Assembly (NCBI GenBank): GCA_963663765.2
Contig: CAXXUA010000006.1
Span: 128,001 to 192,000 of the forward strand
DNA length: 64,000 nucleotides
DNA from: Candidatus Poribacteria bacterium
Lineage (GTDB): Bacteria; Poribacteria; WGA-4E; WGA-3G
Direction of reading: 5' to 3'
In this document: positions 29,727 to 47,934 of the stretch, piece by piece
How the letters are laid out: each line of letters opens with the position of its first letter
How positions within the stretch are numbered: the first letter of the stretch is position 1
Program-made: the position numbers and the translations under genes
The notes under the pieces: generated by a model
What the model saw: the letters and a program-made list of their open reading frames with translations, nothing else
What the model was told of the DNA's origin: nothing
Databases searched by the model: none

Positions 29727-30120
29727 ATTGACTAATTGTAGGCGTGCTTTGGAAGCGCGCACCGCTTGCAGGCGGGGAATGCCTAAATGGCATTCATACC
29801 GTTGATTTGGTGCTTTGTAAGCGCGCCCACTTGCACCTCTTGCAGGCGTGCTTTGTAAGCGCGCCCTCTTGCACCTCTTGCAGGCGTGCTTTGTAAGCGC
29901 GCCCTCTTGCACCTCTTGCAGGCGTGCTTTGTAAGCGCGCCCCTCTTGTGAGAGAGGTTTCAAACCCCGAATGTCTGCGCGCCCTCTTGTCTGAACCAGG
30001 ATTTTCAGGATTTACAGATTAGCAGGATAAGATTTCTGTGACTAATGTTATTGCTTAGATGAAACTTTTTCTATGTGATATAACCTCTGGCACCTGTTAT
30101 TGTAACATGGAACTCACAAA

Positions 30121-30157
30121 AGAAAAAGGCAGATACCCAAAAAGGATACCTGTCTGT
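30121..30157 (-). terminator. Putative intrinsic terminator after cassette 1
   Basis: GGCAG(A)TACC-CAAAAA-GGATACCTG(T/C)C hairpin with adjacent A-tract (U-tract on minus strand); near-identical copy at 41683-41720. Confidence 0.6.
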
Positions 30158-30178
30158 TAGTTTTCAAGGCAATAGTTT

Positions 30179-31804
30179 TCAGTCAACTGTCACATCTTTA
30201 AAAACATCATACGGAACACCCCACGCATCACCCAATCCACTGTTATTAAACGGATACACACGTAAAGTGAATTTATACGTCCCAGATGCAGCAGATGCCG
30301 GAAATGAATAATTTACTGGTAACGAATACGTCGTCGCATCGCTATTCCCAGAAGTCCTATCGATTTTCGTGCCATATTTATTATCCTCATCATAGGTGCG
30401 ATCTGGAAAATATATATACAGATCCGCACCGATAATCGGTGCATTGGCAGTGGCAGTCATGGACACAGAACCTGTGCTGCTGGTATACGTCAAAGATAAA
30501 CTCGGTGTAAAGACTGCAGGTGGCGGTGGCACGGGATATGTGTCCGTATGTTGACAAATATAGAAATTCGTACCTGTACACACACCAACACCATTCGTTG
30601 TCGTACAACTCACCTTGTAGACATGATACATCGAATTTATAGTCAAATCCGTATGACCGCACCCATACGTAGTATGCGGTTGACACTCATAAAACGTTCC
30701 AAAATATCCCGTGATTTGCGTTGCATGGGTACTCCCTGTTTGACATGCAAATAACTCAATATGAGAATGAGATGAATCGCCACACGGTGGAGTTATACGT
30801 GAATGATCACCCGATTGCCAAGACTCATGAGAATCACACACATGGTAGGTTGCGGTTGTAGCGTCCTCATCGTCATCATCCGAATCGCCAGCATCCGCAC
30901 TCTCATCACTACTATCAGAATGGAGTTTTGTCCCACGCCTCAAACGTCTTAAATCATGATCATACTTCAACTTCATGCACCTTCTATAACTTTCGCCGCA
31001 AACATCTTCATTTCCATCTCTATCTATTGCCATAAGTTTGCACTCACGGATTCTATGCTTACTGACTTCTATTGGATCACAAGTGTAGTAATGAATTCCA
31101 TCCCCCGAAATCAATGTCTTATTTCCGTTTTCATCCTCCTCATCGCCACATGTCTGTTGATGCGTATAGAACGCCTTGTTTGGTGTGTTATACGACTCGT
31201 CACAAACCGTCTTACCCGCAAGGTAATTCCCTCTACAGGAAAAAGATGGTAAATTATCTCTACACGTATACGATGTCAAAGAAGACACGGTATGGTTGGG
31301 TTCACTAGGTGAATCGTGGCTTTCTGCCTCATGCAACTTGACAACTTGTAAGGCAACTTTATGAGAACCTTTATAACGGCTAACAGTGGAATTGAAAATC
31401 TCTATCTCTTCCTTCAATGCCTCAAGTACATCACTATAAAATGTAGACAGATCAATTAATCTATAATGGTCTTTAAGTGCCTTCTCTGCGTCTGTCTCAA
31501 AAAAACCTAATAACCTAGCAGCTGTCAATACCAGTCCATCACCCAAATACTTTTCTATAGCACTCCCCATACTTTGCAAACGCACTTCGTCTAGTGCATC
31601 ATCCCAATTATCACTTACTTCATCTTCAACATCCCACGCTCCATTTACATCAATTTTTTGATTAATGACATGGATTTCCATCTTGCGCAAGTCTTCAAAA
31701 GCGTTCTCAACATATTCTTCATAGTTTGCTTCCGATGACACGGTGAATAGAGAAAAACAGATAGAAAAAAAGTAAAGGTTAATCTTAAAAATAGTCTCAT
31801 TCAT
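30179..31804 (-). CDS. Secreted Cys/His-rich hypothetical protein (cassette gene B1)
   Basis: GGAGG plus ATG at 31804 (MNETIFKINLYFFSICFSLFTVSSEA); helical N-domain, many C/H clusters, acidic linker, beta-rich C-terminal domain. Confidence 0.85.
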   Translation of the reverse strand: MNETIFKINLYFFSICFSLFTVSSEANYEEYVENAFEDLRKMEIHVINQKIDVNGAWDVEDEVSDNWDDALDEVRLQSMGSAIEKYLGDGLVLTAARLLGFFETDAEKALKDHYRLIDLSTFYSDVLEALKEEIEIFNSTVSRYKGSHKVALQVVKLHEAESHDSPSEPNHTVSSLTSYTCRDNLPSFSCRGNYLAGKTVCDESYNTPNKAFYTHQQTCGDEEDENGNKTLISGDGIHYYTCDPIEVSKHRIRECKLMAIDRDGNEDVCGESYRRCMKLKYDHDLRRLRRGTKLHSDSSDESADAGDSDDDDEDATTATYHVCDSHESWQSGDHSRITPPCGDSSHSHIELFACQTGSTHATQITGYFGTFYECQPHTTYGCGHTDLTINSMYHVYKVSCTTTNGVGVCTGTNFYICQHTDTYPVPPPPAVFTPSLSLTYTSSTGSVSMTATANAPIIGADLYIYFPDRTYDEDNKYGTKIDRTSGNSDATTYSLPVNYSFPASAASGTYKFTLRVYPFNNSGLGDAWGVPYDVFKDVTVD

Positions 31805-31814
31805 GATATACCTC

Positions 31815-32555
31815 CTATTTTGGTAACGGGAAATTTGAGCGTTGTCGTTTGGGACGAAGGATGTTTTCATCTAACGTGCCTCGTCCCCATGTTAATTTAA
31901 TTAAGTCAGTCAACCGGGCATTTTCCCACAAAAATTGTTTGTATACCTCACTGGGAGGCACTCTATCTTCAATTGTAAATGTATCCAATCGTTCATTCAA
32001 CTCAGCAAATTTTACATGATCGGCCTTCCTACGCGCTGAGTGATTCTTCCAGGCTTGTATGAAGATTGGATTGGTTATGTCGCCAATGCTTTCATAGTAT
32101 GTCATGAGATAGATGTTACGTGCAATGGCTGTGGCTTCAAGGTCGTCCGGTGGAAATGGCGGTATCCATTTCGCGCTCCAGTGTCCGCGTTCTTCAGTCT
32201 GCAGGCGTAGTGCTTTCACAGGATTTGATTCAAGCAACTCCGCATGATAGGTTAAGGGACCATCATACGTTTTTGGTACTAGCGCAGACTGCCCGTGTAG
32301 TTGATCAACTCTATCCCAATGATTACCATGCCATTCATATTCATGTCCATCATCTGGATGTGGTGGTCTGTTATACAGTTCAGGCACTTGCACATGTTCG
32401 GTAGGTTGTTCGGTTTCCGTCTCCGTTTTGGGTTCTGGGTCGGCAAGTTCCTCTTTGAACTGTTTCATGTCTACATGCAAGTATATTTGCAATGCCACGA
32501 AACCGACTATAAGAAGCGCGAGTCCGCCTATTGCCCACTGTAATTGTTTTGACAT
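31815..32555 (-). CDS. Membrane-anchored hypothetical protein (cassette gene A1)
   Basis: MSKQLQWAIGGLALL... N-terminus shared with 43237-43839 and 45092-45784. Confidence 0.88.
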   Translation of the reverse strand: MSKQLQWAIGGLALLIVGFVALQIYLHVDMKQFKEELADPEPKTETETEQPTEHVQVPELYNRPPHPDDGHEYEWHGNHWDRVDQLHGQSALVPKTYDGPLTYHAELLESNPVKALRLQTEERGHWSAKWIPPFPPDDLEATAIARNIYLMTYYESIGDITNPIFIQAWKNHSARRKADHVKFAELNERLDTFTIEDRVPPSEVYKQFLWENARLTDLIKLTWGRGTLDENILRPKRQRSNFPLPK

Positions 32556-32556
32556 G

Positions 32557-32922
32557 TCAATACCCCCTTATTTGTGTGTCCCCTTGCGAACTTAATGTGT
32601 CTTGTTGGCAAGGTTCGGTTAATGCGGGGTTGATGATCCCCCGGTCAGGAATAATATGGTTACCAATTTTGTCTACCTTCTGAGGACACGATATTCTTGG
32701 GGTTGGACAGATAATGTATGGTTTTTCACAGTCCTGTCTTGTTATGCACTCAGGCTTGAATATGGGTATCAGACCAGACGGGGCTTCGTTTGAAAGAGTC
32801 GCATCAGATAACCCATGTCCGAAGAGTGTCATAAAGCTGAAAATTGTTACCATAACAATGACAGTGAGTAAGCACTCACCCTGATAGGTGCGTATTATTT
32901 TCAAAGGTCTTTTTATCATCAA
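32557..32922 (-). CDS. Small hypothetical protein with hydrophobic segment and 4-Cys cluster (cassette gene C)
   Basis: AGGAG RBS upstream; ends 1 bp before A1; internally deleted copies precede A2 and A3. Confidence 0.55.
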   Translation of the reverse strand: MMIKRPLKIIRTYQGECLLTVIVMVTIFSFMTLFGHGLSDATLSNEAPSGLIPIFKPECITRQDCEKPYIICPTPRISCPQKVDKIGNHIIPDRGIINPALTEPCQQDTLSSQGDTQIRGY

Positions 32923-33506
32923 TTATATCTCCTGTGTATATGCACAACACAGATTAACAAGCATTGAAACATTCTCCAATGCAACAACAAAAGCCCGCGA
33001 CGAAATGTGCGGGCACGAAAATACCACAAACCGAATGCTTGCGGGAAGACTTTGTAAATAATAAATATTAACGAATGTGAATTGAAGAGGGAGGGTAATA
33101 ACTTATAGTTTAGTATAGTTAAAACAAACCTACCAAGTCCAATACGCAGATAATACCTGCTCAAAAAATTGGACCAAAAGGTGTTCACTTTACGTGTACA
33201 CTTTTTGATCTGCTGTTTCCACATATCGGTTAATCATTTTTAAATCCTCATGTGTGAGAAATAACGTATAGGAGGATGAAGGTAAATCACAGAAATACCG
33301 ACTATTTACCCTCACTAACCCTTGATCTGGTGCATTCTACCGGAGCAGATGTCCAATAAGTTTTAAACTTTACAATAGTTATAATACGACATTACAATAG
33401 TTATAATACTATATTTTCATATTAAATGTCATATTTTATTTTTCTTTTAGTCTATATGTTGCTATTTAATAATAGGGTGTTTTCTGAAAAAACAAGTTAT
33501 ATCCAC

Positions 33507-34378
33507 CAATACCTTCGCCATTTTTGAGTGCTTCAGTTGAATGAGTATATAGTGTTGATCTACCATTGCTCTGTGATATTGTTAGGATTACATAAATAAA
33601 AATTACTTCAGGTTTTCGTTGAAGTATTTTTAATTATCATAGCGTCTAATTTGACGATAGAATCTGACAGAATAATTTATATGCACAATCTGGCAGAATG
33701 TGCTACAACTGACCGCACAATCTGGAAGAATGTGCTACAACTGACCGCACAATCTGGCAGAATGTGCTACAACTGACCGCACAATCTGGAAGAATGTGCT
33801 ACAACTGACCGCACAATCTGACAGAATGTCTATTGTTGGCGATGGTATTGGTTTTCGTTGAAGTATTTTTAATTATCATAGCGTCTAATTTGACAATAGA
33901 AATGACTATATCAACAATCTGTCAGAATAATTTATATGCGCAATCTGTCAGAATGTGCTACAACTGACCGCACAATCTGACAGAATGTCTATTATTGGCC
34001 AGGGTTTTTTAGTTTTCAATATTTTTGATATTATTTTGCTATGTCGTTAATTTTATGGGGTACCATCTTGTCCAGTTCTTTAGTCCCGTAGGGACGATAT
34101 GTTTATAGAAAATGTTTTCCACCCCAATTGAGTTCCATAGGAACGACATAGAAGAATAAACATATCGTCCCTACGGGACTAAAGAACTGTGGATGGTATT
34201 CGTTTTCTATAAACATATCGTCCCTACGGGACTAAAGAGCGATGTTAATTTTTCAATAATCTAAAACTTATGCAGAAAGTTCGGTTAGGAAACCGAACCT
34301 GGGTATAATCTTTCAGTAAATCTCAATAACAGAAAACTCTTAAAACTAAATAACCCTGTATTATTGGCGAAGGTATTG
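33507..34378. mobile_element. MITE family A (CAATACCTTCGCCA TIR, 6-bp TSD ATCCAC) carrying 32-bp arrays and a nested ISAs1-like MITE
   Basis: TSD at 33501-33506 and 34379-34384; arrays at 33683-33830 (4.5 units) and 33938-33989. Confidence 0.85.
34000..34358. mobile_element. Nested MITE with CAGGGTT...AACCCTG ends and 10-bp TSD TATTATTGGC
   Basis: TSD at 33990-33999 and 34359-34368; internal TTTAGTCCCGTAGGGACG palindromic repeats. Confidence 0.85.
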
Positions 34379-35052
34379 ATCCACAGAACTTCAGAGTTTT
34401 TCAGATTTCGATTTTCTGAGTAAATTTTATCACAGACGTTGGTCCATCGGTTTGCTTATTTTTAGTCGTTATCGCATTCTTTGTCTGAACCATGTTGACA
34501 AAAACTATACACGTTTGAAAAAGTGTATTGAGTTGCAAGTTGAATTGTGATAAATTATTGCTTTGTTAAAAATATTGGTAAACGTCTAACAGTGTTGACG
34601 GGTGTGTAAAGTTTTTGCACAGAGGTACTAACTTGTGTTCTCTTTAGTCCCGCAGGGACGCAATGTTTATAGAAAGACGTTATCACATCCCCTCTCTTTA
34701 GTTCCGTAGTAACGACATAGAAGGATAAACATATCGTCCCTAATGAAGATTAATAAATACTTTGGGTAATTCTACTAATCCGGCTACAATCTGAAAAATA
34801 TTTATTACCCGATTAATAAATTAATCTTCTTATGGGTCTAAAGAACTAGACAAGATGGTATCCCATAAAATTAACGACATAGCAAGATAATACCAAAAAT
34901 ATTGAAAACTAAATAACCCTGCCCCATCGTTAACTAATATTGACATTCATTATAGTATTCTGGTATCCTATATTAAAAATCATAAACGTCAATTTTCTGA
35001 ATCTATTTTTACACTTGACAAAAAACTGTCCACATTAGGAAACAAATAACTT

Positions 35053-35769
35053 ATGTTTGGTGAAATTAGAAACGAACACGGTGAACGTCTTGACTATACA
35101 TATCAAAAAGGCAAAGACAACAGAATTGTAGTGATTGGTCACGGAGTCACAGGCAATAAAGATAGACCTGCTCTCATCGCTTTAGCAGAAGGTCTCACTG
35201 ATGCTGGTCTTTCCGCATTGCGATTCTCATTCTCTGGCAACGGTGAATCGGAAGGAACATTTTCTGACTCCACTATCACAAAAGAGGTTGCGGACCTCGG
35301 TTGCATTTTAGATAAGCTCAGAGAACACAAAGTCTGCTACGTTGGTCATAGTATGGGAGGCGCAGTCGGTGTGCTACGTGCTGCATCCGATGAACGCATC
35401 CAAGTACTTGTGTCGCTTGCAGGCATGGTGCATACAAAAGCATTTGCTGACCGAGAATTCGGTGATATTACACCTAACAGCGGATTTATGTGGGATGATC
35501 CCGAATGTCCCCTATCACAAACCTATATGGACGACATGGCAGCGATCGACAGTGTCGCAAAACACGCAAGTAAATTTGCTATCCCCTGGCTATTAGTTCA
35601 CGGTTCAGAGGATGACATCGTGCCAGTCCAAGATAGCATTGACATCCTAAAATACGCAAATGAACCAACAGAACTCCTTCAACTCCCCGGCGTAGACCAT
35701 GTCTTTTCAGATGATGGCACACCCATCATGGTTGAAAAAGTTGTCGCGTGGATTAACAAAAAACTGTAA
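35053..35769 (+). CDS. Alpha/beta hydrolase
   Basis: HG oxyanion motif, GHSMG nucleophile elbow, HGSEDDIVP, DHVF. Confidence 0.92.
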   Translation: MFGEIRNEHGERLDYTYQKGKDNRIVVIGHGVTGNKDRPALIALAEGLTDAGLSALRFSFSGNGESEGTFSDSTITKEVADLGCILDKLREHKVCYVGHSMGGAVGVLRAASDERIQVLVSLAGMVHTKAFADREFGDITPNSGFMWDDPECPLSQTYMDDMAAIDSVAKHASKFAIPWLLVHGSEDDIVPVQDSIDILKYANEPTELLQLPGVDHVFSDDGTPIMVEKVVAWINKKL

Positions 35770-35789
35770 ATACAATTTTTCATATACGA

Positions 35790-36635
35790 ATGTATCGGAG
35801 TCTTTATATTATGCCATCACCACGTCTCTCAGTCTCAACATGGAGTTTGCATCGACAACTCGGTAAACCCGGTTTCACCAGTCCAGTTCATGACATGCAA
35901 ATCCCTACTGAAACCCACAATAAAGGTCCCATCTCACTGCTGGACTTACCATCACGCATTGCGGAATTCGGCATAAACACTGTAGAGATTTGCCATTTTC
36001 ACCTACCATCCATAGAACAGTCTTACTTGCATGAACTCCGTGCTGCACTTCAAAATGCCAATGTTGAACTTTTCTCTTTGCTTATTGATGATGGTGACAT
36101 TACACACGCTAATAACGCAGAACGAGACATCACATGGATAGAAAAATGGATTGACATTGCAGGGGAACTCGATGCAAGTTGTGCACGCGTCATCGGGGGC
36201 AAAGCAACACCGTCTGATGAAACATTAGCACAAAGTCAACATGCCCTCTCCCGATTAACCGATCGCGCACAAACTGCTGGAATTCGCTTAATGACAGAAA
36301 ATTGGTTCTCCATTTTCTCAACACCTAAAAATGTCAACACTATATTAGACAGGTTGGATGGAAAAGTTGGCTTATGTCTTGACTTCGGCAACTGGCGTGG
36401 CGATACAAAATACACTGACCTTGCTGCAATCGCACCGAAAGCAGAATCGTGTCATACCAAAGCACATTTTGCTGCCCCGCGCGAAATAGACGAAGAAGAT
36501 TATATCCAATGCCTTGAACTTACCCAAAATGCGGGTTTTGCCGGACCGCATACCCTTATCTACGATGGACCGGATGATAACGAATGGGAAGGCTTAACCA
36601 TTGAACGCGAGGTCGTAAACCCATATCTCAACTAA
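35790..36635 (+). CDS. Sugar-phosphate isomerase/epimerase (AP-endonuclease-2 TIM barrel) family protein
   Basis: VSTWSLH, TENW, LDFGN, HTKAH. Confidence 0.8.
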   Translation: MYRSLYIMPSPRLSVSTWSLHRQLGKPGFTSPVHDMQIPTETHNKGPISLLDLPSRIAEFGINTVEICHFHLPSIEQSYLHELRAALQNANVELFSLLIDDGDITHANNAERDITWIEKWIDIAGELDASCARVIGGKATPSDETLAQSQHALSRLTDRAQTAGIRLMTENWFSIFSTPKNVNTILDRLDGKVGLCLDFGNWRGDTKYTDLAAIAPKAESCHTKAHFAAPREIDEEDYIQCLELTQNAGFAGPHTLIYDGPDDNEWEGLTIEREVVNPYLN

Positions 36636-36983
36636 TGCAGTACCTACGCAAAATAGTAAGTACACTTTGATAAAGATTAATTTATTAAACGGGTAATCAT
36701 ATATTTTTCACTCGGTTGACGGGGAATGCCAAAAGGCATTCATACCCGGGGACTGCCAAAAGGCATTCATACCGTTGATTTCTTGATTTCTTGATTTCTT
36801 GATTTCTTGATTTGGTGCTTTGTAAGCGCGCTGATATGTCAAAACCCAATGAAGTTTGACAATCAAAATCGGTAGTTGAATTCGTAGGGGTTGGGTTCCC
36901 CAACCCGGTTGGTTTTTGAGTTTGCATAGATCTTGTATGGAAACCACGCCCCTACGAATACACAACTTGAACCTCAAAACTCA

Positions 36984-37125
36984 TTAGGTGTCAACTTAAG
37001 AAAATATTGTTTGCATTTTCTCTTGTGGGAGGGGTTTTCAACCCCGATTTGAGCGGAAATGCACTAAAATATCGGGGTTGAAAACCCCTCACACAAGAGG
37101 TTAAAATCCTTAAGTTGACACCTAT
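36984..37125. mobile_element. MITE family E (TAGGTGTCAACTTAAG TIR)
   Basis: Same ~141-bp unit as 37984-38124 and 46949-47089. Confidence 0.85.
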
Positions 37126-37309
37126 AGCACTGATATGTCAAAACCTAACAGCGCGCTTACAAAGCACGCCTACCGTGGCTGGATTAGGAGAAATACCTAA
37201 TTTATTTATTAATCTTCATGTAAGAGCGTTGGAATAACACAATTCTATAACTGTTATGTATAGTTTGATCGTATGGGAGTACACTATTAGACTTGGAGAC
37301 TGAAGATAA

Positions 37310-38258
37310 ATGCATAACGAATTTATCTCAATGATGACAGAACGCATAGTACAAGATTTTGATCCCGTGCAAATTATCCTATTCGGTTCGCATGCACGAG
37401 AAGACGCTGATCAACATAGTGACATAGATCTACTTGTTGTTTTTGACGAACTATCGGATAAACGGAGAACGGCAATTGATATAATGAATGCCTTGTCTGA
37501 CTTACCCATCGCAAAGGACATCATTGTCTCAACACCTGAAGAACTTGAACGCAGCCGCACGCGAATCGGATCAGTCCTACGTTACGCACAACAGGAAGGT
37601 AAAATTCTTTGGAAGAGTTGGAACGCAGCTCCATCCGAATCATCTCAGTTTAGTGGTCTATACGAAAAGCAAGAAAACACAGATATACATACAAATGATC
37701 GACTCGAAGATACCTCCAGATGGCTACGCTATGCAGAGGAAGATTTGATCACTGCTGAAACATTCTTAGGACATCCGCACGTGCCACCTCGCCAGTCATG
37801 TTGGTTAGCACAACAAGCAGCAGAAAAAGCGTTAAAAGCAGCATTAATTTTCTTACAAATTGATTTTCGTAGAACACATGACTTGGTTGAACTGCGGGAC
37901 ATGTTTCCTGAGAGTTGCCAACTCAAAAAAATAAATCCAAACATGTCGAATCTAACCCGTTGGGTAGTGGAAGCCAGATACCCATAGGTGTCAACTTAAG
38001 AAAAAAGTGTTGGCATATTCTCTTGTGGGAGGGGTTTTTAACCCCGATTTGAGCGGAAAAGCGCATAAAATCGGGGTTGAAAACCCCTCCCACAAGAGGT
38101 AAAAATCCTTAAGTTGAGACCTATGGGTAGTTGAAGCCAGATACCCGGAGAAAATACAAGATGCTACCGAAACAGAAGCGTCCAATGCTGTCGAACAAGC
38201 GCATGCTATATGGGAATCTGTAGCTACTGCGCTCGTAGAACACGGTTTTTCACTATAA
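37310..38258 (+). pseudogene. Fused MNT nucleotidyltransferase-HEPN protein (type VII TA-like) interrupted by a MITE
   Basis: ILFGSHAR...SDIDLLVV; AQQAAEKALKA, RTHDL, ARYP; the reading resumes after the insert (EKIQDATETEA...GFSL*, stop 38256-38258). Confidence 0.85.
37984..38124. mobile_element. 141-bp MITE family E with 22-bp target duplication
   Basis: ATAGGTGTCAACTTAAG/CTTAAGTTGAGACCTAT ends; GGGTAGT(G/T)GAAGCCAGATACCC at 37962-37983 and 38125-38146. Confidence 0.9.
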
Positions 38259-38278
38259 CAATCAGGAGTAACGATTCA

Positions 38279-38742
38279 CGAGTTGTGCTAAAAAACTATA
38301 TGTTAACCATTGTTTCACATAAGCATGACGTTTTGCAGGTGTCCTTCATAGTTTGAAACGATCTTCAGTCCCGACAAATGCCATACGGGGAATGCCTTAA
38401 TGGCATTCATACCGTTGATTTGGCGCATTTGGCGTTGATTTGGTAGGGACGATATGTTTATAGAAAAACGTCATAGTACATCCTCTTTAGTCCCGTAGGG
38501 ACGATATGTTTATAGATAACGAATACCCTTCCCAGTTCTTTAGTCCCGTAGGGACGATATGTTTATTCTTCTATGTCGTTCCTACGGAACTCTATTGGGG
38601 TTGAAAACATTTTCTATAAACATATCGTTCCTACGGAACTAAAGACATGGACAAGAGGGTATTACAAAATATTAACGGTATAACAAAATACTATCAAAAA
38701 TATTAAAAACTGAATAACCTTGTGAAAACTGCGTAAGTCCTG
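38279..38742. repeat. Composite repeat tract; first ~180 bp shared with 58896-59110
   Basis: CGAGTTGTGCTAAA...TAGTTTGAAACGATCTTCAGTCCCG...GGCATTCATACC and GTCCCGTAGGGAC repeats in both places. Confidence 0.75.
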
Positions 38743-38789
38743 ACAAGGAGTTATCGCGCGGTCGGCATCTTAAGTAAGGATACAGTTAT

Positions 38790-39632
38790 ATGTTCTCACT
38801 ATCAAAAACACAATACAGCCTAACTATCGCTTGGAATGACCAGCAAGTCTTAGGATACCATTTTCCTAAAGATGGCAACCGTCCCTTTTGCCATCCATTG
38901 AACCTACCCGGAGCACCTACACTCACTATGAATGAACCGGGGGATCACGTCCATCATCAGGGATTATGGGTCGCGTGGAAAATGGTAAACGATGTTAACT
39001 TCTGGGAACAACCCGCACCAGGTGCTGACCCCACAGGGTTCGGTAAGATCGTTCACAAGCGGATTATATCACTAAATACGACTACCGACCGCGCAAGCAT
39101 AACAACAGAAAACGCATGGATTGATTGGCAAGGTATAACCCATCTGACAGAACACCGAAAAATTACCGTCCATGCACCTTCTGAAGATACTATGCACATT
39201 TCTGTAGGATTGACACTCCGTCCAAACCAACGTGAGGTAGTGCTTGATCTACGGCGCGGTGACCCAGGCGGTATGGGTAGATACTACAGCGGTTTGGCTA
39301 TTCGATTTGACAATATCATCACACCGGGTAAGTTATTAGACGCTGACGGTCGCACCGAACCAATGGAGATTTTCGGTAAACAAAGCAAATGGTGTAGTTT
39401 CACTTCACAACACCCGACCGACAACGAAACCTACGGTATCGCAATCGTTGACCATCCAGATAATCCTCGCCATCCAACACCATGGTGGGTACGCAACCGA
39501 GAAAACTACTGCTTAATTCATCCTTCCCCTGTCTATCATCAACCGATCCACCTTACCCCTGATGAGAACCTGACTTTGCGGTATCGTGTTGTTCTTTACC
39601 GCGGACAACCGAATGCAGAAGTTTTTGAGTAG
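38790..39632 (+). CDS. PmoA-like (DUF6807-type) beta-sandwich protein
   Basis: RPFCHPL, DHVHHQGLW, VNFW, YSGL.IRF, DHPDNPRHPTPW.VR, LRYRV. Confidence 0.75.
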   Translation: MFSLSKTQYSLTIAWNDQQVLGYHFPKDGNRPFCHPLNLPGAPTLTMNEPGDHVHHQGLWVAWKMVNDVNFWEQPAPGADPTGFGKIVHKRIISLNTTTDRASITTENAWIDWQGITHLTEHRKITVHAPSEDTMHISVGLTLRPNQREVVLDLRRGDPGGMGRYYSGLAIRFDNIITPGKLLDADGRTEPMEIFGKQSKWCSFTSQHPTDNETYGIAIVDHPDNPRHPTPWWVRNRENYCLIHPSPVYHQPIHLTPDENLTLRYRVVLYRGQPNAEVFE

Positions 39633-39651
39633 AGGGACTAACATTCTAATA

Positions 39652-40717
39652 ATACCAATTCAAATAAATCTTGTCTCATTATGGAATTATACTGTTTACT
39701 GCCAGGGGGTTACTCTCTTCGGTAGGAGCGACATCACGGTCGCGACCGGGAGGTCGCTCCTACCAGATTTCCGCTGCTAATTAGACATTATCACATGAAA
39801 ATAGTATCATACCGATTCAAATAAATCTTGTCTCATTATGGAATTATACTGTTTACTGCCAGGGGGTTACTCTCTTCGGTAGGAGCGACATCACGGTCGC
39901 GACCGGGAGGTCGCTCCTACCAGATTTCCGCTGCTAATTAGACATTATCACATGAAAATAGTATCATACCGATTCAAATAAATCTTGTCTCATTATGGAA
40001 TTCTAATGTTTACTGGCACGGGGTTACCCTCTTCGGTAGGAGCGACCTCCTGGTCGCGACAGTGAGGTCGCTCATACCAGATTTCCGCTGCTAATGAGAC
40101 ATTATCATACCGATTCAAATAAATCTTGTCTCATTATGGAATTATAATGTTTACTGCCAGGGGTTCACTCTCTTCGGTAGGAGCGACCTCCTGGTCGCGA
40201 CAGTGAGGTCGCTCCTACCAGATTTCCGCTGCAAATGAGACATTATCACATGCAAATGGTATCATACCGATTCAAATAAATCTTGTCTCATTATGGAATT
40301 CTAATGTTTACTGGCACGGGGTTACCCTCTTCGGTAGGAGCGACATCACGGTCGCGACCGGGAGGTCGCTCCTACCAGATTTCCGCTGCTAATTAGACAT
40401 TATCACATGAAAATAGTATCATACCGATTCAAATAAATCTTGTCTCATTATGGAATTCTAATGTTTACTGGCACGGGGTTACCCTCTTCGGTAGGAGCGA
40501 CCTCCTGGTCGCGACAGTGAGGTCGCTCATACCAGATTTCCGCTGCTAATGAGACATTATCATACCAATTCAAATAAATCTTGTCTCATTATGGAATTAT
40601 ACTGTTTACTGCCAGGGGTTCACTCTCTTCGGTAGGAGCGACCTCCTGGTCGCGACAGTGAGGTCGCTCATACCAGATTTCCGCTGCAAATGAGACATTA
40701 TCACATGGAAATGGAAT
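39652..40717. repeat. Seven tandem R157 units
   Basis: Unit starts 39652, 39809, 39966, 40107, 40264, 40421, 40562. Confidence 0.95.
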
Positions 40718-40789
40718 AAATCCACTATAAAAGAAAAATTCAAACAAATAAATATTTATGAGCTACACTGATGATATTTTGACAAACAT

Positions 40790-41362
40790 TTAGTTCCACC
40801 TATCACCCGACAAGTTATTTGTTAACGGAGCACGTGAGTTGTTAGGCAGTATCTCTGTTCTCCGTATGTGAGCATAATGTATCCAGGACTGGACGATATA
40901 AGGTCCCTCGATCCAACTGTAAATTTTGGAAAATCCACATGCGACGTTATCGTATAGTCTTGGCGGGATTGTGCGGGGATCGTAGTGTTTACCGGGGGGT
41001 CTTGGATATGTTGGTAACAAAATACCTAAAAGTCCAGAACGGGTGTTGTATTCTGTCTGACGTATACTGGAGCTTATCCCCCAATCCACCGATTTCTGTT
41101 GCCATGTATTAGCACCGATCAACACGACAGTCACTGTAGAATCCCGGAGATATTTATCACGTATGTGCTGACGAATGCGTTCTGTTGAGAATGTCGTACT
41201 ATCAAAGTCTCCTATTTTGTTAGACCTTGACACTATGATGCCGTAGACATCTAAAAACAATTCTTCAAATCGTTCCTGATACTGCCGATCTTCAGTATGG
41301 CAGAAGTTGATAAATACTTTGTGTTGATTATTCATTTGATTTTTTGTTTGTTGAATATTCAA
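40790..41362 (-). CDS. MTH538/ThsB-like TIR-domain protein (DUF1863-like); catalytic Glu apparently replaced by Gly
   Basis: HKVFI..., IRDKYLRDSTVTVVLIG..TW..K.VDW(G)I, GLLGILLP, IPPRL; start possibly MNNQHK at 41335. Confidence 0.85.
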   Translation of the reverse strand: MNIQQTKNQMNNQHKVFINFCHTEDRQYQERFEELFLDVYGIIVSRSNKIGDFDSTTFSTERIRQHIRDKYLRDSTVTVVLIGANTWQQKSVDWGISSSIRQTEYNTRSGLLGILLPTYPRPPGKHYDPRTIPPRLYDNVACGFSKIYSWIEGPYIVQSWIHYAHIRRTEILPNNSRAPLTNNLSGDRWN

Positions 41363-41394
41363 ATATATGTTTGTGAAATAGGTTCACACTTCAT

Positions 41395-41608
41395 AATTAA
41401 AGACACAGTTTTATATCGCAAAGGGTGCATAAAGCATAAAATATTTGAATTTTATCTAAAGATTGGTGAAAAAACGCAGAAAAATAACAAACCAAGCGAA
41501 AATTACTGGCAAGGTGTTCCGCTTGAGAAAGATCTTGCTAATATTATGCGTAAACGTGAATACAATCCCGAAATGTCTATTGATGAAATTACAAAAGTGT
41601 ATAAGTAA
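41395..41608 (+). repeat. Segment X: 3' gene-like fragment repeated at 44619-44747 and 46628-46800
   Basis: TTAAAGACACAGTTTTA...AAACCAAGCGAAAATTACTGG.AAGGTGT.CCGCTTG in all three copies. Confidence 0.8.
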
Positions 41609-41682
41609 TTATAGAGTTCACTAAAAGAAGGGGGTAATTGCACTTATTAACAACTTTTCAAGTCCAAAACGACTTATTCCGA

Positions 41683-41720
41683 AGAAAAAAGGCAGATACC
41701 CAAAAAGGATACCTGCCTAT
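41683..41720 (-). terminator. Putative intrinsic terminator after cassette 2
   Basis: Copy of 30121-30157. Confidence 0.6.
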
Positions 41721-41747
41721 GTGAAAAACAACTATAGATTCACTTTG

Positions 41748-43244
41748 TCAGGAAACATAAATGAGGTAACTATACTCATAACATGTCTGATCCGATGCGC
41801 TGGAATGCGGATAAATGTATGCTGTGAGTTTATACACACCACCTACGGCACCAGAAGGAATCGTAAAACTAAAGGTTACCTCTGTCTCAACAGTAGAATC
41901 TTGCGCGTAAGTTGTCGGAAACAACTCATCACCGTAAGTTCTACTATCCCCAGGCGGCAATAAATACCAATGCACTATTGCATATCCACCTGATTTCGTA
42001 ATCAACTTGGCAGTATGTGAGTCACCCGGTGCTAATGAAGGCATCTTTTGACCGTTCACAGTCGCTAAAGATGCACCCACAGGATATATATATAAACCGG
42101 GCGCGGTAGGCGTTGATGTGCTCGTGGACGCAGTCTCCGTGTTGGCTTCACTTGCAAGAGTGGATGTCTCAGTACCAACAACATTAGCCGACTCATCGTT
42201 ATCATCATTCGAATCATCTTCGTGATAGGTAGAATTCGGACACTGTTTGTGCTCACAAGTATACCATATGGAATCATCATATTTCAGGTTACAAAAATTC
42301 AGAATGACATCATAAAACCCATTATAGACTCTTTTCCAGCATACGATTTTGTGTGGAGAGTCATCTACATATTCATATACTAATGCGCTTATAGTATTCA
42401 TTCCTGACAGGGCAGTGGTGTAGATTAATTTTTTCAATGGTGCAAACTTTTTACCGCAAATACCAGGGCAAAGTCGATGGTGTGGTCCCGGTTTCGGACA
42501 AGAATCCGTTTCACAAGAATACCAACCGAACTTATTTGTCTTATGCAGTTCCTCTTGGCACTGTGTAAAATGATCCGCCATCAAAGCTGCAGGAGAAGTA
42601 TACGTCACACTACAATCATCACTGCCAAAACAACCATATTCAAAAACTATATTGTCAATCGGTGCGGTGTTAACCCCTATTGTAAGAGTTGCAGTGGGGG
42701 TACCGTGATATGCCGCATAGGCTGCGACATACGCCGTATAAGCATCATCCCTGTTCTTGAATAAACCTGTTGCCTGTTGAGAACCGTTTTTAAGATCACC
42801 GATCGTCGTCCGTATTTTACTCGTTTCGTTTATAGCGATATCCAACGAACTCGCTAAACGTATCTGACCTGAAATGTCTATAGCGGTGAGATTTGCATTT
42901 GTGAGAGCTTGCCTTAACTCTCCTACTGATGCAGTTGGGGTAATAAGACTTAGGGCAACAAAAAATATCAAAGAAACACCTTGATGTGCAGCTTCTATGC
43001 CTTGTTCACGCATCTCCTCCGCGTTGACATCATACAAAACCTTCAGATCATCCCGTTCAGGTTTGAGATCACGATAATTTCCCAGATTATCTCTTAACTC
43101 CCCAAGGGCATTTGTGAATGCGTCTTTGATCCTTTCATACTCTTTGAACGTCATTGCTGACGAGGCTATTGCTGGTATAATTTAAATCCCTATACAAATT
43201 AGTAAGAGACATAGCACTTTCTTATATACACAACGATTATTCAT
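41748..43244 (-). pseudogene. Secreted Cys/His-rich protein (cassette gene B2) with TAA in the signal peptide
   Basis: MNNRCVYKKVLCLLLICIGI*IIPAIASSAMTF (TAA 43182-43184), then 468 intact codons; same architecture as B1. Confidence 0.8.
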
Positions 43245-43839
43245 TATTTATCTCCTTGATTATCCGTTCACTGTCTTCATTAACAAGTTTATGCCATAAT
43301 TCAGACGCTTTTTCATCCTCCTCTATTGTACGAAACGGTATACCCACTGGAGATGCAGGAAACGGAGACATTCGATTATGTTCATAGTTTTTCCACGCTT
43401 CAGTTACGTATTTTTCATAAGCATCGTAAGTCGCTTCCCCTATATATCGGGGTTTGTTTCGCTCAGGATTGTTTTCATGAATAGGAACTGTCTTCTGTGA
43501 CGGTGTCACATCAGGAGTTTCGTTAGAACTTTCACCAATCTGCACAACCGGATGCTCAACAGGCGCATCAGGATTTCCGATCGGCACTTTGTCCCAGTGG
43601 TCGCCGTCCCATTCCCATTTGAAGCCGGGAATATCTACAGGTTTTTTTTCACTAAATACAACGTTTGGTGTTGTTGGGGTTTCTGTTTCTGTTTCCGTTT
43701 TGGGGTCTGGACCGGCAATTTCCTCCTTGAAATTTTTTAGGTCTACATGTAAATAGATTTGAAAAGCAACGATACCGACTATAAAACCGACTATAAATAG
43801 CGCGAGTCCGCCTATTGCCCACTGTAATTGTTTTGGCAT
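43237..43839 (-). CDS. Membrane-anchored hypothetical protein (cassette gene A2)
   Basis: GGAGG RBS; MPKQLQWAIGGLAL; WEWDGDHW. Confidence 0.88.
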   Translation of the reverse strand: MPKQLQWAIGGLALFIVGFIVGIVAFQIYLHVDLKNFKEEIAGPDPKTETETETPTTPNVVFSEKKPVDIPGFKWEWDGDHWDKVPIGNPDAPVEHPVVQIGESSNETPDVTPSQKTVPIHENNPERNKPRYIGEATYDAYEKYVTEAWKNYEHNRMSPFPASPVGIPFRTIEEDEKASELWHKLVNEDSERIIKEINNE

Positions 43840-44050
43840 GTCAATACCTCCTTATTTATGAGTCCCCTTGCGAACTTAATGTGTCTTGTTAGCAAGGTTC
43901 GGTTAATGCGGGGTTGATGATCCCCCGGTCAGGAATAATATGGTTACCAATTATATCTCCTTTGTGAAATATTGTTAAGATAAAACTATATGTTATCCAA
44001 TGATGCAAACTCTAAATCAACGCATCAGTATGAAATAGCCTCTATAGTTA

Positions 44051-44618
44051 CAATACCTTCGCCATTTTTGAGTACTTCAGTTGAATGAGTATATAGTGTT
44101 GATCTACCATTGCTCTGTGATATTGTTAGGATTACATAAATAAAAATTACTTCAGGTTTTCATTGAAGTATTTTTATTTATCATAGCGTCTAATTTGACG
44201 ATAGAATCTGACAGAATAATTTATATGCACAATCTGGAAGATTGTGCTACAACTGACCGCACAATCTGGAAGATTGTGCTACAACTGACCGCACAATCTG
44301 GAAGAATGTGCTACAACTGACCGCACAATCTGGAAGAATGTGCTACAACTGACCGCACAATCTGGAAGATTGTGCTACAACTGACCGCACAATCTGGAAG
44401 ATTGTGCTACAACTGACCGCACAATCTGGAAGATTGTGCTACAACTGACCACACACTCTGGCAGAATGTGCTACAACTGACCGCACAATCTGACAGAATG
44501 TGCTACAACTGACCGCACAATCTGGAAGAATGTGCTACAACTGACCACACACTTTGGCAGAATGTGCTACAACTGACCGCACAATCTGGCAGAATGTCTA
44601 TTATTGGCGAAGGTATTG
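44051..44618. mobile_element. MITE family A with 11.5 x 32-bp array; TSD TAGTTA
   Basis: CAATACCTTCGCCA...TGGCGAAGGTATTG; array 44227-44597. Confidence 0.88.
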
Positions 44619-44774
44619 TAGTTAAAGACACAGTTTTAGACAGAAAGGGTGCATCGGCATAAAATATTTGAATTTTATCTAAAAATTGGTGAAAAACGCT
44701 GGAAAATAACAAACCAAGCGAAAATTACTGGTAAGGTGTCCCGCTTGCACGTAGTAGTTGACTCGTTGGAAATT

Positions 44775-45011
44775 TTATCCATCTACGAAAATCGTTGGAG
44801 ATGCTTTTATACCTAATTCAGCAGCACGTTTGATGTTTTCCCTGAACAGATGATCAGCCTCAGGAGTATCAAACAAACGTTTATTTTTTTCCACATCAAT
44901 ACCAAGTTTCTTTGCACAATCTTCCCAACTTTTGTTTAACTTTTTACCACGACATAGGAGATAATCTAAAAGTTGCTCTAGATATTCTTGTGCGATGAGT
45001 AGCTGCCGCAT
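44775..45011 (-). pseudogene. C-terminal fragment of DsbA/thioredoxin-like protein
   Basis: AKKLGID...RAAELGIKASPTIFVDG resembles the G(V/I)xxTPTxxxNG end of the DsbA fold; no N-terminal CxxC. Confidence 0.55.
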
Positions 45012-45105
45012 ATTTTCTGCTACTTGATGATATTAAGACTCCGCTGTAAATGACAACACACATCAGAATTGTCAGGACATATAAATCTTTTTCATCGGTT
45101 TTCAC
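44944..45105 (-). pseudogene. 5' stub of cassette gene B3 (signal peptide only)
   Basis: GTG overlapping the A3 stop, MKTDEKDLYVLTILMCVVIYSGVLISS, then runs into the DsbA fragment. Confidence 0.5.
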
Positions 45106-45784
45106 CACTTTCACCGTATAATTCACGGTATTTTTTAATACCCCTCACTTTTGGAACAGGGACACGAACAATGTGGCCCGCTGCTTCCAGTGGTTTCCAG
45201 TACACTTCTTCCATCAAATCCCTTAATTTCTTGGCTTCATCGCTCCACATGCTTCCCCCAATATACCCTTGAGCAATTGCATTCTCAAGATGATTAAGTT
45301 CTGCTAATGCTCGGTATGATTCAGGAGAACGGTAGTCTGCGACCATAATTGCTGCATTTTTCCGAAGAGTGCCCTCAGGGTCTTTGAGAACGTGTTTGAA
45401 ATCTTCATATTTCGCCCGCGGCACATTGATTTCTGATGGGTTGATTCGTGTCGTTTTTGGTTCAAGCAACTGGATCGGTTTATCCTTCTGCACGGGTTGG
45501 TCTGCTTGCTGTACATCTATCGGCACTTCAAGCCAATGATCCCCGTGCCACTCATACTTACGTCCGTCATCTGGATGTGGTGGTCTGTTATCCACTTCAG
45601 GCACTTCCACCTGTTCGGGGGGTTGTTCGGTTTCCGTTTCAGTTTTGGGGTCTGGGCTGGCAAGTTCCTCTTTGAAATTTTTCAGGTCTACATGTAAATA
45701 GATTTGAAAAGCAACGATACCGACTATAAAACCGACTATAAGTAGCGCGAGTCCGCCTATTGCCCACTGTAATTGTCTTGGCAT
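45092..45784 (-). CDS. Membrane-anchored hypothetical protein (cassette gene A3)
   Basis: MPRQLQWAIGGLAL; YEWHGDHW. Confidence 0.88.
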   Translation of the reverse strand: MPRQLQWAIGGLALLIVGFIVGIVAFQIYLHVDLKNFKEELASPDPKTETETEQPPEQVEVPEVDNRPPHPDDGRKYEWHGDHWLEVPIDVQQADQPVQKDKPIQLLEPKTTRINPSEINVPRAKYEDFKHVLKDPEGTLRKNAAIMVADYRSPESYRALAELNHLENAIAQGYIGGSMWSDEAKKLRDLMEEVYWKPLEAAGHIVRVPVPKVRGIKKYRELYGESGENR

Positions 45785-45995
45785 GTCAATACCTCCTTAT
45801 TTATGTGTCCCCTTGCGAACTTAATGTGTCATGCTGGCAAGGTTCGGTTAATGCTGGGTTGATGATCCCCCGGTCAGGAATAATATGGTTACCAATTATA
45901 TCTCCTTTGTGAAATATTGTTAAGATAAAACTATATGTTATCCAATGATTCAAACTCTAAATCAACGCATCAGTATGAAATAGCCTCTATAGTTA

Positions 45996-46627
45996 CAATA
46001 CCTTCGCCATTTTTGAGTACTTCAGTTGAATGAGTATAAAGTGTTGATCTACCATTGCTCTGTGATATTGTTAGGATTACATAAATAAAAATTACTTCAG
46101 GTTTTCATTGAAGTATTTTTATTTATCATAGCGTCTAATTTGACGATAGAATCTGACAGAATATTTTATATGCACAATCTGGAAGAATGTGCTACAACTA
46201 CACGCACAATCTGGAAGAATGTGCTACAACTGACCGCACAATCTGGAAGAATGTGCTACAACTGACCGCACAATCTGGAAGAATGTGCTACAACTACACG
46301 CACAATCTGGAAGAATGTGCTACAACTGACCGCACAATCTGGAAGAATGTGCTACAACTGACCACACACTCTGGCAGAATGTGCTACAACTGACCGCACA
46401 ATCTGACAGAATGTGCTACAACTGACCGCACAATCTGGAAGAATGTGCTACAACTGACCGCACAATCTGACAGAATGTGCTACAACTGACCACACACTCT
46501 GGCAGAATGTGCTACAACTGACCGCACAATCTGACAGAATGTGCTACAACTGACCGCACAATCTGGAAAAATGTGCTACAACTGACCGCACAATCTGGAA
46601 AAATGTCTATTATTGGCGAAGGTATTG
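45996..46627. mobile_element. MITE family A with 13.5 x 32-bp array
   Basis: Same TIRs; array 46172-46606. Confidence 0.88.
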
Positions 46628-46812
46628 TAGTTTAAAGACACAGTTTTAGACCGAAAGGGTGCATACGGTATAAAATATTTGAATTTTATCTATAGATTGG
46701 TGAAAAACGCAGGAAGATAACAAACCAAGCAAAAATTACTGGCAAGGTGTTCCGCTTGAGAAAGATTTTGCTAATATTAAGCGTAAACGCGAATACAATA
46801 CCGATTCAAATG

Positions 46813-47177
46813 CAGAGTTATTCAGTTTTAAGAATTATCAGTTAATGGGTGTTACTTAAAGTTTATATCGTAGGTCGGGTAGAGCGTATGCGAAACCCGA
46901 CATGTATTGATTTTGTCTATCATGTCGGGTTTCGCTCACGCTCTACCCATAGGTGTCAACTTAAGGATTCTGACCTCTTGTGGGAGGGGTTTGCAACCCC
47001 GATTTTATGTTCATTTCCACTCAAATCGGGGTTACAAACCCCTCCTACAAGAGAATATGCCAACACTTTTTTCTTAAGTTGACACCTATGGGTTTCGCTC
47101 ACGCTCTACCCGACCTACGATATTAAATCACGAATGTTATAAATATCTGCCAAAATATCTAAAACTGAATAACCCTG
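46813..47177. mobile_element. ISAs1-like-ended MITE (9-bp TSD ATTCAAATG) containing a REP doublet and a nested family-E MITE (46949-47089, 22-bp TSD)
   Basis: CAGAGTTATTCAGTT/AACTGAATAACCCTG ends; GGGTTTCGCTCACGCTCTACCC at 46927-46948 and 47090-47111. Confidence 0.85.
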
Positions 47178-47276
47178 ATTCAAATGTCTGTATAATTGAC
47201 AATTGTCGTAATTTAATGATACAATAACTATGTGTTGATATTCAACTCATAGTTATGTTATATTTACTATTGAAAA

Positions 47277-47552
47277 GATGTAACCCAACGCGATTTAGCA
47301 ACAGAAGTGGGTGTAGATTTTTCCTACATCAGTAAGATTGAAAATGATCGTATGCCACCGCCCGCAGCTGATACTATTGTCAAGATATGTGAGGTTCTTG
47401 GTGTGCCTCCAGATGATTTGCTTGCTATGACTGGTAAGATGCCAACGTCTATAAAAAAAGTTTTGAGTGATAATCCAGCTGCGCAACAGTTCCTACGTGA
47501 AGCAAAAACGATGACATTGACAGATGACGAGTGGATAGATTACTATACCTAA
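47277..47552 (+). pseudogene. XRE/Cro HTH regulator, 5'-truncated
   Basis: TQRDLATEVGVDFSYISKIEND...KICEVLGV; no in-frame start before helix 2. Confidence 0.7.
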
Positions 47553-47884: not shown

Positions 47885-47934
47885 ATACCTATAATCCCAA
47901 GGGCATGCACACTCACAAAAAATAAAGGTTCATC

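Follow-up and report, generated by a model that had tools for sequence, protein, structure and literature searches.

A Poribacterial Z-A-B operon with homogenised ends and a variable core inherited as a block across the A/B gene boundary

Introduction

Poribacteria abound in sponges as uncultured symbionts, and no function has been assigned to most of the genes specific to their lineage. The window analysed here, 64,000 nucleotides (nt) of a sponge-associated Poribacterium (positions 128001-192000 of contig C6 in genome G000; 6.35 Mb, 15 contigs, ~41% G+C), poses the problem in a compact form: what are the three membrane-anchored proteins A1, A2 and A3, which share an N-terminus up to a histidine-tryptophan (HW) motif, differ beyond it, and are each encoded beside a gene, or the remains of a gene, for a secreted Cys/His-rich protein, B? 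A first-pass annotation of the sequence had proposed a polymorphic two-partner surface system with variable A C-termini. We find that A and B belong, with a third gene that we call Z, to a conserved, lineage-restricted operon, Z-A-B, whose ends are homogenised and whose variable core is inherited as a block across the A/B gene boundary. As to function, we tentatively read A as a membrane-anchored cognate partner (a tether, chaperone or guard) of secreted B, a reading to which we assign slightly less than an even chance.

The module has traits typical of diversifying or conflict-type selection: it occurs mainly in one genus, reaches 18 copies in this genome, and combines homogenised ends with matched middles that are exchanged as blocks. 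Whether it proves to serve adhesion or recognition, to handle metal or to pair a toxin with its immunity protein, the module would add a new envelope system, and its function would offer a handle on strain-level interactions inside sponges. Given its clear domain boundaries and an intact cassette 1, the module is directly testable in vitro.

Results and Discussion

The unit is a three-gene operon, with one intact and two decayed copies in the window

The open reading frames (ORFs) on which the first-pass annotation rested are present on the minus strand (Table 1). The supposed shared ribosome-binding-site region turns out to be the 3' end of Z, a gene upstream of A that the annotation had missed and that encodes a small, Cys-rich protein with a transmembrane (TM) anchor and no matching Pfam family. 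The unit is a three-gene operon, Z-A-B, with tight start/stop coupling: at the Z/A junction a single nucleotide separates the Z stop from the A ATG, each of the 7 matches to a Z hidden Markov model (HMM) in the genome has an A gene directly downstream, and 6 of the 9 matches to a B HMM have one directly before them. The window contains three Z-A-B cassette copies, one intact (cassette 1) and two decayed.

Each A gene had been described as immediately followed or overlapped by B. An overlap, of ATGA type, is real at A2/B2 and A3/B3 but not in cassette 1, where B1 most likely starts at ATG 31804, behind AGGAGG and 10 nt after the A1 stop, rather than at 31870. For B2 the true start is ATG 43244 instead of 43154; it gives an 8-nt overlap with the A2 stop, and the signal peptide is interrupted at codon 21 by an in-frame TAA, between MNNRCVYKKVLCLLLICIGI and IIPAIASSAMTF. 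In orthologues P0136, P0137 and P0141 the signal peptide is intact and leads into the same ...SSMTF.EYE... sequence. Unless the TAA is an assembly error, B2 is probably a pseudogene or made without its signal peptide. B3 does survive only as a stub, as first described. An ATGA-type overlap with A3 leads into a frameshifted signal-peptide remnant (LYVLTILMCVVIYSGVLISSSS), and the remainder of B3 is gone; all 5 A3 orthologues are followed by full-length B genes, whose signal peptides (MRKFLCILTILMCVVIYS...) the remnant matches. Judged by its Pfam match, the ORF at 44775-45011 (78 aa) is a DsbA-like fragment and no part of B; it retains just the last ~40% of the domain, and the CxxC part is missing.

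The claim that B1 and B2 end in the same terminator was borne out: one identical hairpin (CAGGTATCC-TTTTT-GGGTATCTG plus a T run) is common to B1 (30152-30130) and B2 (41718-41690). RNA-library contigs cover the intact operon, with parts of B1 uncovered; the RNA and DNA runs with the locus were labelled sponge metagenome or coded. These contigs and the sponge-associated organism are all that bears on the role in sponge-host recognition once suggested for the system, and that role is unsupported. An Rfam search over 29000-48000 found no riboswitch or leader in the common upstream part of the A genes; its only matches, four in number, were microRNA-like, sub-threshold and placed on palindromic repeats at 46874-47064.

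Table 1. Features of the Z-A-B cassettes and their immediate surroundings (window positions)
Feature	Position	Strand	Description
Z, upstream of A1	32557-32922	-	ORF; aligned with 8 Z proteins of other genomes
A1, 246 aa	31815-32555	-	ORF; TM anchor, acidic/Pro linker PEPKTETETEQ, hairpin YEWHGNHWD, conserved helical domain
A1 C-terminal helical domain motif			GPLTYH..ERGHWS..WIPPFPPDD
B1, 541 aa from ATG 31804	30179-31804	-	ORF; start first given as 31870; Sec-type signal peptide, helical N-domain, Cys/His-rich modules, acidic linker, Cys/His modules again, beta-rich C-terminal domain
Intrinsic-terminator-like hairpin after B1	30130-30152	-	
A2, 200 aa	43237-43839	-	Same N-terminal module, variant linker (TPTTPNVVFSEKKPVDIPGFKWEWDGDHWDKVP), own C-terminal domain (..TYDAYEKYVTEAWKN..)
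B2	41748-43244	-	Start ATG 43244; open part 468 aa from ATG 43154, with helical N-domain, Cys/His region, acidic/ST linker, immunoglobulin (Ig)-like C-terminal domain
Terminator-like hairpin after B2	41690-41718	-	
A3, 230 aa	45092-45784	-	Same N-terminal module, third C-terminal domain (..GYIGGSMWSDEAKKL..)
B3 stub	45020-45095	-	ATG 45095 overlaps A3 stop
DsbA-like thioredoxin fragment	44775-45011	-	Pfam PF01323, E 2.6e-7, profile positions 101-174 of 191
Segment directly 5' of A2	43840-43980	-	Within repeat family D6
Segment directly 5' of A3	45785-45953	-	Partly within repeat family D6
ThsB-type TIR-like gene	40790-41362	-	Pfam PF08937, E 1.2e-13; PADLOC ThsB

Constant ends flank a swapped core

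A1, A2 and A3 are 41-50% identical overall, and nearly all of their ~60 invariant columns fall in the first ~83 residues (M1...W80). The common N-terminus, the break at the HW motif and the swapped C-termini that had been noticed in these three genes hold genome-wide, at 18 loci found with A3 as query; a scan for the leader motif GGID-M-x-KQLQWAIGGLAL returned 14 full ORFs. Against the other 13 full paralogues, the A3 5' module matched at 83-96% DNA identity (E 1e-75 to 0), the match beginning ~110-210 nt before the ATG and, in most copies, ending ~255-270 nt inside the gene. The junction lies at codon ~85-90, at the WHGDHW motif, in most of the 14 paralogues, and ~55 nt in (codon ~19) in three copies. 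Past it, DNA similarity among the paralogues stops. The conservation of the 5' module is far above chance, and within the genome the TM anchor, the acidic/Pro linker and the His hairpin are nearly identical. In the window, 43681-43980 and 45626-45925, which make up repeat family D6, are 95% identical. Beyond the junction the genome holds an A1 type (five paralogues), a '..LHK.GEP..' type, an A2 type, an A3 type and singletons.

The 3' end of the cassette is likewise common to different loci. In blastn comparisons of cassette 2 with contig C15 at 509.5-513 kb, the 5' module was 86.8% identical over 272 nt and the 3' flank, matching C15:511656-513031, was 94.6% identical over 1387 nt. The latter match belongs to the locus of another A-B pair, and in cassette 2 it comprises B2 from codon ~327, the terminator and spacer, and the ThsB-like TIR gene. 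The ~1.5 kb between the two flanks, which holds the A C-domain, the B N-domain and the first Cys/His modules, is unrelated. A variable core flanked by 5' and 3' ends that are common to loci thus behaves as an exchangeable cassette.

Slow evolution of the ends would not by itself explain this pattern. Among A1-type proteins (n=19), the first 45 aa were 78% identical in 14 within-genome pairs but only 33% identical in 157 between-genome pairs, whereas the C-domain stood at 52% and 54%, respectively. High N-terminal identity within genomes only points to within-genome homogenisation by gene conversion or recombination, and not merely to slow change.

This architecture had led the first-pass annotation to a comparison with polymorphic toxin/immunity systems. 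Among these, Rhs, CDI (contact-dependent inhibition) and MafB-type cassettes come closest. The likeness holds in that a constant 5' part runs to a short motif, unrelated 3' parts follow, the neighbouring gene is matched in type, extra incomplete copies occur, and conserved flanks would permit cassette exchange. The differences are substantial. The constant part of A (~85 aa) is only a TM anchor, a linker and a hairpin, with no known secretion or trafficking domain; no toxin or immunity family was detected for Z-A-B; the partner B is a large, exported, modular protein instead of a small immunity gene product; there is a third, upstream gene; and the variable types are few and conserved between species. 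The same points bear on the idea that A is a polymorphic effector whose constant N-terminus serves trafficking and whose variable C-termini are toxic, with B as the cognate immunity protein or receptor. The constant N-terminus, the sharp junction motif, the swapped C-termini and the cognate gene downstream are what such an effector would show. Its N-terminus, however, is merely a membrane anchor in which no secretion-system domain was found, the C-domains are small helical bundles without a toxin family or fold match, B (~470-620 aa, exported, modular) is unlike immunity proteins, and the C-termini form conserved types. We consider this reading highly improbable.

Hypervariability of the A C-termini, which the first-pass annotation had proposed as a test, did not survive comparison with other Poribacteria: a few types are conserved across species, with orthologues ~31-84% identical. 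This goes part of the way to the outcome that it had named as refuting, alignment of A homologues from end to end: many A1 homologues span 91-100% of A1, at 36-84% identity.

The family is restricted in range, and A type goes with B type

A1 had 249 homologues at E<=0.001 among 636 candidates scored, and every named one is a Poribacteria hypothetical protein. In a phylum sample of 121 genomes that included G000, A was present in 34: it occurred in 28 of 31 genomes of the same genus and in 5 of 50 from other genera of the family (two sister genera contributed 4 of 45 and 1 of 2; g4 and g5, the only others, together gave 0 of 3), and in none of 39 from the other 7 families. Copy number was highest in G000 (18), followed by 14 and 9. 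Searches of 90 other genomes of the family recovered the A3 C-terminal part in 5 (52-69% identical) and the A2 C-terminal part in 4 (31-48% identical). B was similarly confined. B1 had 14 relatives in 5.8 billion clusters, the single named one a Poribacteria hypothetical protein; B2 had 59 at E<=0.001 among 1.84 billion representatives; and the C-terminal Cys/His modules of B had 95, Poribacteria wherever named.

The downstream partner proved consistent in other genomes, as the first-pass annotation had supposed. We fetched loci from related genomes with A-type queries, which means that the counts are not independent: B lay directly after A at 16 of 20 loci fetched with A1 (exceptions L032, L042, L043 and L045) and was present at 8 of 9 fetched with the A2 and A3 C-termini (exception L060). 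The 16 B ORFs of the A1-fetched loci have a signal peptide, 11-27 Cys and 13-28 His; several are split by frameshifts and two are truncated. In public records, adjacent A and B genes carry the locus tags OXN27_18975/18980 and OXM61_03095/03090. In G000 itself, a B-like gene is next at 7 of the 18 A loci, the rest being followed by transposase-like genes, unrelated genes or nothing. Two B-family ORFs lie away from any A locus, at C4:861171-862622 (-; open frame of 484 aa, HMM E 4e-22) and at C4:409679-410440 (+; 254 aa, HMM E 9e-9).

That the A C-terminal type would co-vary with the B N-domain was also supported. With A C-terminal types defined by motif and B N-domains (first 200 aa) clustered at E<1e-10, all five B clusters of at least two members each went with a single A type: clusters of 6 and 9 with the A1 type, one of 4 with the A2 type, one of 5 with the A3 type, and one of 2 with the '..LHK.GEP..' BLAST class. 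By partner type, a B3-type protein was encoded at 5 of 5 A3 orthologues and a B2-type protein at 3 of 4 A2 relatives. Single-linkage grouping of A C-termini with the common hairpin left in the cuts merged types, and in a shuffle test on that grouping 120 of 2000 shuffles reached the observed value.

Protein architecture

Searches of Pfam, NCBIfam, PADLOC, PHROGs and the PDB matched A, B and Z to no described family, save for the Ig-like C-terminal sandwich of B, in agreement with the earlier view that A and B lack known relatives. Full-text literature searches, supplements aside, for HGDHWH-type motifs and for cysteine-rich or expanded membrane-anchored families in Poribacteria found no description of the family.

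The A N-terminus is modelled as a single TM helix. In the A1 model, which had an overall pLDDT (predicted local distance difference test) of 84.9, the TM helix (3-37) is followed by a disordered acidic linker (42-56), a beta hairpin (72-83, WHGNHW) and a helical domain (105-220, pLDDT ~97). The model gave no convincing fold match, the A C-domains matched no toxin family or fold, and A1-A3 matched no family in Pfam, NCBIfam, PADLOC or PHROGs, with no secretion or trafficking domain on the N-terminus. No prepilin-like GFTLxE leader was seen by eye in the A N-terminus.

The layout of B is common to its types: an N-domain, Cys/His modules, an acidic linker and a beta C-domain. As had been noted, B1 and B2 share this layout at low identity; BLASTP aligned them over a single 47-residue match (28%, E 0.002), yet the B2-family HMM matched B1 at 7.8e-34. 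The N-domain is type-specific, and some B types have beta-rich N-domains; the Cys/His modules are common across types. B proteins are ~470-620 aa long with up to 27 Cys and 28 His. Recurring modules include ..C.GpC...F.sP..A...H...CG.. and ..G.G..YYTC......H.VR.C....C.DGFR.C...DHD.., and further ones read ..YH.CG.H....SGDHS...CG.S.H..C.. and ..C..TN.NG..CTV..FYACQ.HTHVYP... A multihaem cytochrome was considered and dropped, no CxxCH motifs being seen in the inspected sequences. The B2 model (pLDDT 68) places long helices (3-57, 91-118, 130-150) around a low-confidence hydrophobic stretch (59-94); its Cys/His region is poorly modelled, and a confident sandwich at 352-468 gives the C-terminal domain a predicted Ig-like fold, resembling macroglobulin (MG) and fibronectin-III (Fn3) domains. 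Such sandwiches are generic and tell no function. They filled the match lists of whole-B2-model structure searches, and Pfam MG2 matched 3 of 53 B members (best E 0.0002), marginally at most. B1 matched nothing in Pfam, NCBIfam or the PDB; in phmmer searches of the PDB, B1 and B2 each gave 0 matches; and the ESM Atlas gave no usable match to B2 or to the Cys/His part of B1.

A as a proposed membrane-anchored partner of B

Modelling of an A/B complex, which the first-pass annotation had proposed, gave weak support for a contact between A1 and B1. With A1 residues 60-246, B1 residues 26-180 and our own alignments (49 and 13 rows) as input, the prediction scored 0.60 (runs 0.60, 0.01 and 0.68) against 0.01 for the best of 3 controls; the mark for this score was passed by 116 of the 157 solved complexes and by 2 of the 215 mismatched pairs, but mark-passing scores of 0.60 or less came from only 18 of those 157 complexes and from both passing mismatches. 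The runs share at least 1% of contacts, and partner pLDDT is at least 47.

We suggest the following arrangement. A would be a bitopic inner-membrane protein, oriented N-in/C-out, with its C-terminal helical domain in the periplasm in one of a few distinct types. B, exported by its Sec signal peptide, would be periplasmic or surface-located and stabilised by disulfides or metal. In the periplasm, the variable domain of A would dock the N-domain of its own co-translated B, a secreted binding protein to which A would thus serve as membrane tether, chaperone or guard. The His hairpin of A, and perhaps the cysteines of Z too, may bind metal.

Several points weigh against this reading. Co-variation of the A C-terminus with the B N-terminus is expected from contiguous DNA alone and is no proof of binding, and the matching is not one to one, since A1-type A proteins pair with at least two B N-domain clusters. 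At 11 of the 18 A loci in G000 no B gene is next; A may work without B, or many copies may be relics. One of the three complex runs scored 0.01, and the fold of the partner is uncertain. Both the orientation of A in the membrane and the whereabouts of B are inferred, and the putative metal site is suggested by a short motif whose HxxHxH form is complete in only 41 of 120 homologues.

The same observations could be taken to mean that Z, A and B are lineage-specific envelope proteins with separate roles and no coupling beyond the operon, that the constant ends are gene conversion among repeats in a genome rich in them, and that the window mostly holds decaying duplicates. Two of the three window cassettes are broken, several of the A loci without B adjoin transposase-like genes, and dispersed 32-nt arrays and 157-nt units (see below) surround the cassettes as they do dozens of other sites; contiguity alone, moreover, yields co-variation. 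We nevertheless regard this account as improbable: many species, at 40-70% protein identity, retain the Z-A-B order and its start/stop coupling, RNA-library contigs cover the intact operon, and the A1-B1 prediction, weak as its support is, exceeded its controls.

The conserved hairpin and possible metal handling

The core motif W-x-H-G-D-H-W/Y-H/D is conserved across the A family and sits in the predicted beta hairpin, and it raises the possibility that the module handles metal: Z (Cys-rich), A (through the HGDHWH hairpin) and B would scavenge, store or deliver zinc or copper in the periplasm, with A acting like the zinc-passing streptococcal histidine-triad proteins and its variable domain aiming it at one B. 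According to PMC3842936, Pht proteins present HxxHxH on three beta strands, the Zn ligands are three His with one carboxylate, and AdcAII receives Zn from PhtD. The A hairpin motif resembles this zinc site: A, with its HGDHWH, and PhtA/PhtD are surface or envelope proteins with a short motif of HxxHxH type in a beta hairpin, a predicted one in A, and the way in which Pht proteins hand zinc to a specific partner from their own operon can be likened to A-B. B, for its part, repeats motifs such as YH-C-G-x-H-x4-SGDH-S and C..C..H.

The comparison has limits. A has one motif where Pht has five, the third His is often Asp (many homologues read HGDHW-D, and some lack the motif altogether), A is anchored by an N-terminal TM helix, its host is a Poribacterium, and its metal binding is putative. 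Membership of A in the histidine-triad family was rejected by family-model tests: Pfam Strep_his_triad (PF04270) matched 1 of 49 A-family members at E 0.051, below the cut-off, and a six-frame genome search (cut-off 27 bits) listing matches to E<=10 returned none of the A loci of G000, while a PDB profile search gave no Pht chain. No metal-uptake transporter or regulator lies beside the loci examined, disulfides explain the abundance of Cys in an exported protein equally well, and the many types and copies would be left unexplained. Metal handling as the main role of the module is thus a poor prospect in our view.

The B N-domain and possible pore formation

A second functional alternative makes B a toxin. 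Secreted B would attack membranes with its helical N-domain and hydrophobic, Gly/Ala-rich segment in the manner of XaxA/YaxA (ClyA-type), its Cys/His and Ig-like domains would target it, A would be the cognate membrane-anchored immunity protein, and A copies without B would be orphan immunity genes. The B1-family profile had XaxA (6gy6_A) as its top PDB match (E 0.0057), and a separately built B2-family profile weakly matched XaxA (E 0.67) and YaxA (6ek7_A, E 3) over the N-domain. The long helices of the B2 model around a hydrophobic, low-confidence stretch, the excess of A loci (~18) over B genes (~7-9), the type-specific pairing, the A1-B1 prediction (with the caveats given above) and the conflict-type neighbours of the cassettes (ThsB-like TIR, HEPN-nucleotidyltransferase, HKD and Snf2 helicase) would all be consistent with it.

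The likeness to XaxAB/YaxAB extends to the arrangement in adjacent gene pairs, but the profile matches are marginal and no family model stands behind them: pore-former families in Pfam and NCBIfam matched 0 of 53 and 0 of 14 B members, and coiled-coil proteins (chemoreceptor, M protein, kinesin) stood in the same PDB match lists. B differs from these proteins in its signal peptide and its long Cys/His and Ig-like extensions, A is not XaxB-like and no XaxB-like second subunit was seen, and other B types have beta-rich N-domains. The immunity gene would sit upstream, with a conserved His hairpin that has no role in the model, and the model offers B no known route across an outer membrane. A toxin/immunity function of this kind is, on balance, fairly unlikely. 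We hold as unlikely, too, its more specific form, a polymorphic pore-former/immunity system in which exchangeable XaxA-like B heads sit on a constant Cys/His and Ig-like body and A confers head-specific immunity. Were it true, orphan A copies would accumulate as protection from neighbours' toxins, cores would be swapped by recombination between homogenised flanks, and the system would shape how Poribacteria strains within a single sponge compete. The first-pass annotation's appeal to polymorphic systems stands for the constant N-terminus, the swapped C-termini and the matched B, but not for the rest: no toxin, immunity or secretion domain was found, and B, large and secreted, is unlike a typical immunity protein.

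Neighbouring genes and repeats

The ThsB-type TIR gene of cassette 2 has near-identical copies (95-98% DNA identity) at C15:~512.5-513.0 kb, C15:520131-520694 and C7:109597-110289. Beyond cassette 3, a 1089-aa protein (47935-51204, +) combines an HKD (PLD-like) domain with an Snf2 helicase. In PADLOC it matches C3a139 at 2e-104 and, less strongly, DrmD, BrxH and ZorD-like entries; two small ORFs 5' of it, at 47307-47552 and 47569-47802, look by eye like a helix-turn-helix/AbrB-type pair. This helicase region adjoining the cassettes is likely a defence island. Between cassettes 1 and 2, a gene at 37310-37987 (+) encodes a fused nucleotidyltransferase and HEPN protein (Pfam NTP_transf_2 6.3e-11, HEPN 7e-15); the HEPN match, which extends to the end of the ORF, stops at profile position 90 of 117, and this part is possibly truncated.

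Tandem arrays of a 32-nt unit (GCACAATCTGGAAGAATGTGCTACAACTGACC) lie at 33683-33829, 44227-44597 and 46172-46606, with 4.6, 11.6 and 13.6 copies and a conserved flank of ~180 nt each. Their position upstream of each A suggested that they might be part of the cassette; this was rejected, since at least 8 contigs carry such arrays, at dozens of further sites, most of which have no A. They are a dispersed repeat and, because they have no spacers, are not CRISPR-like (clustered regularly interspaced short palindromic repeats). At 39652-40714, ~7 tandem copies of a 157-nt unit each contain a 44-nt near-perfect palindrome (GGTAGGAGCGAC...GTCGCTCCTACC); copies of this unit, 76-98% identical, occur dispersed across many contigs. 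The segment between the cassettes is bracketed by inverted repeats at 34000-34239/38483-38722 (240 nt, 90%) and 37959-38130/46943-47114 (172 nt, 89%), which are built from short palindromic units (GTCCCGTAGGGAC, GGGGTTTTCAACCCC) and on which the microRNA-like Rfam matches at 46874-47064 fall. On the far side of cassette 1, a gene at 27858-29726 (+) encodes a 622-aa signal-peptide protein that appears WD40-repeat-like by eye, with a DNA periodicity of 126 nt, and it is followed at 29810-29948 by 3.6 copies of a 38-nt tandem repeat.

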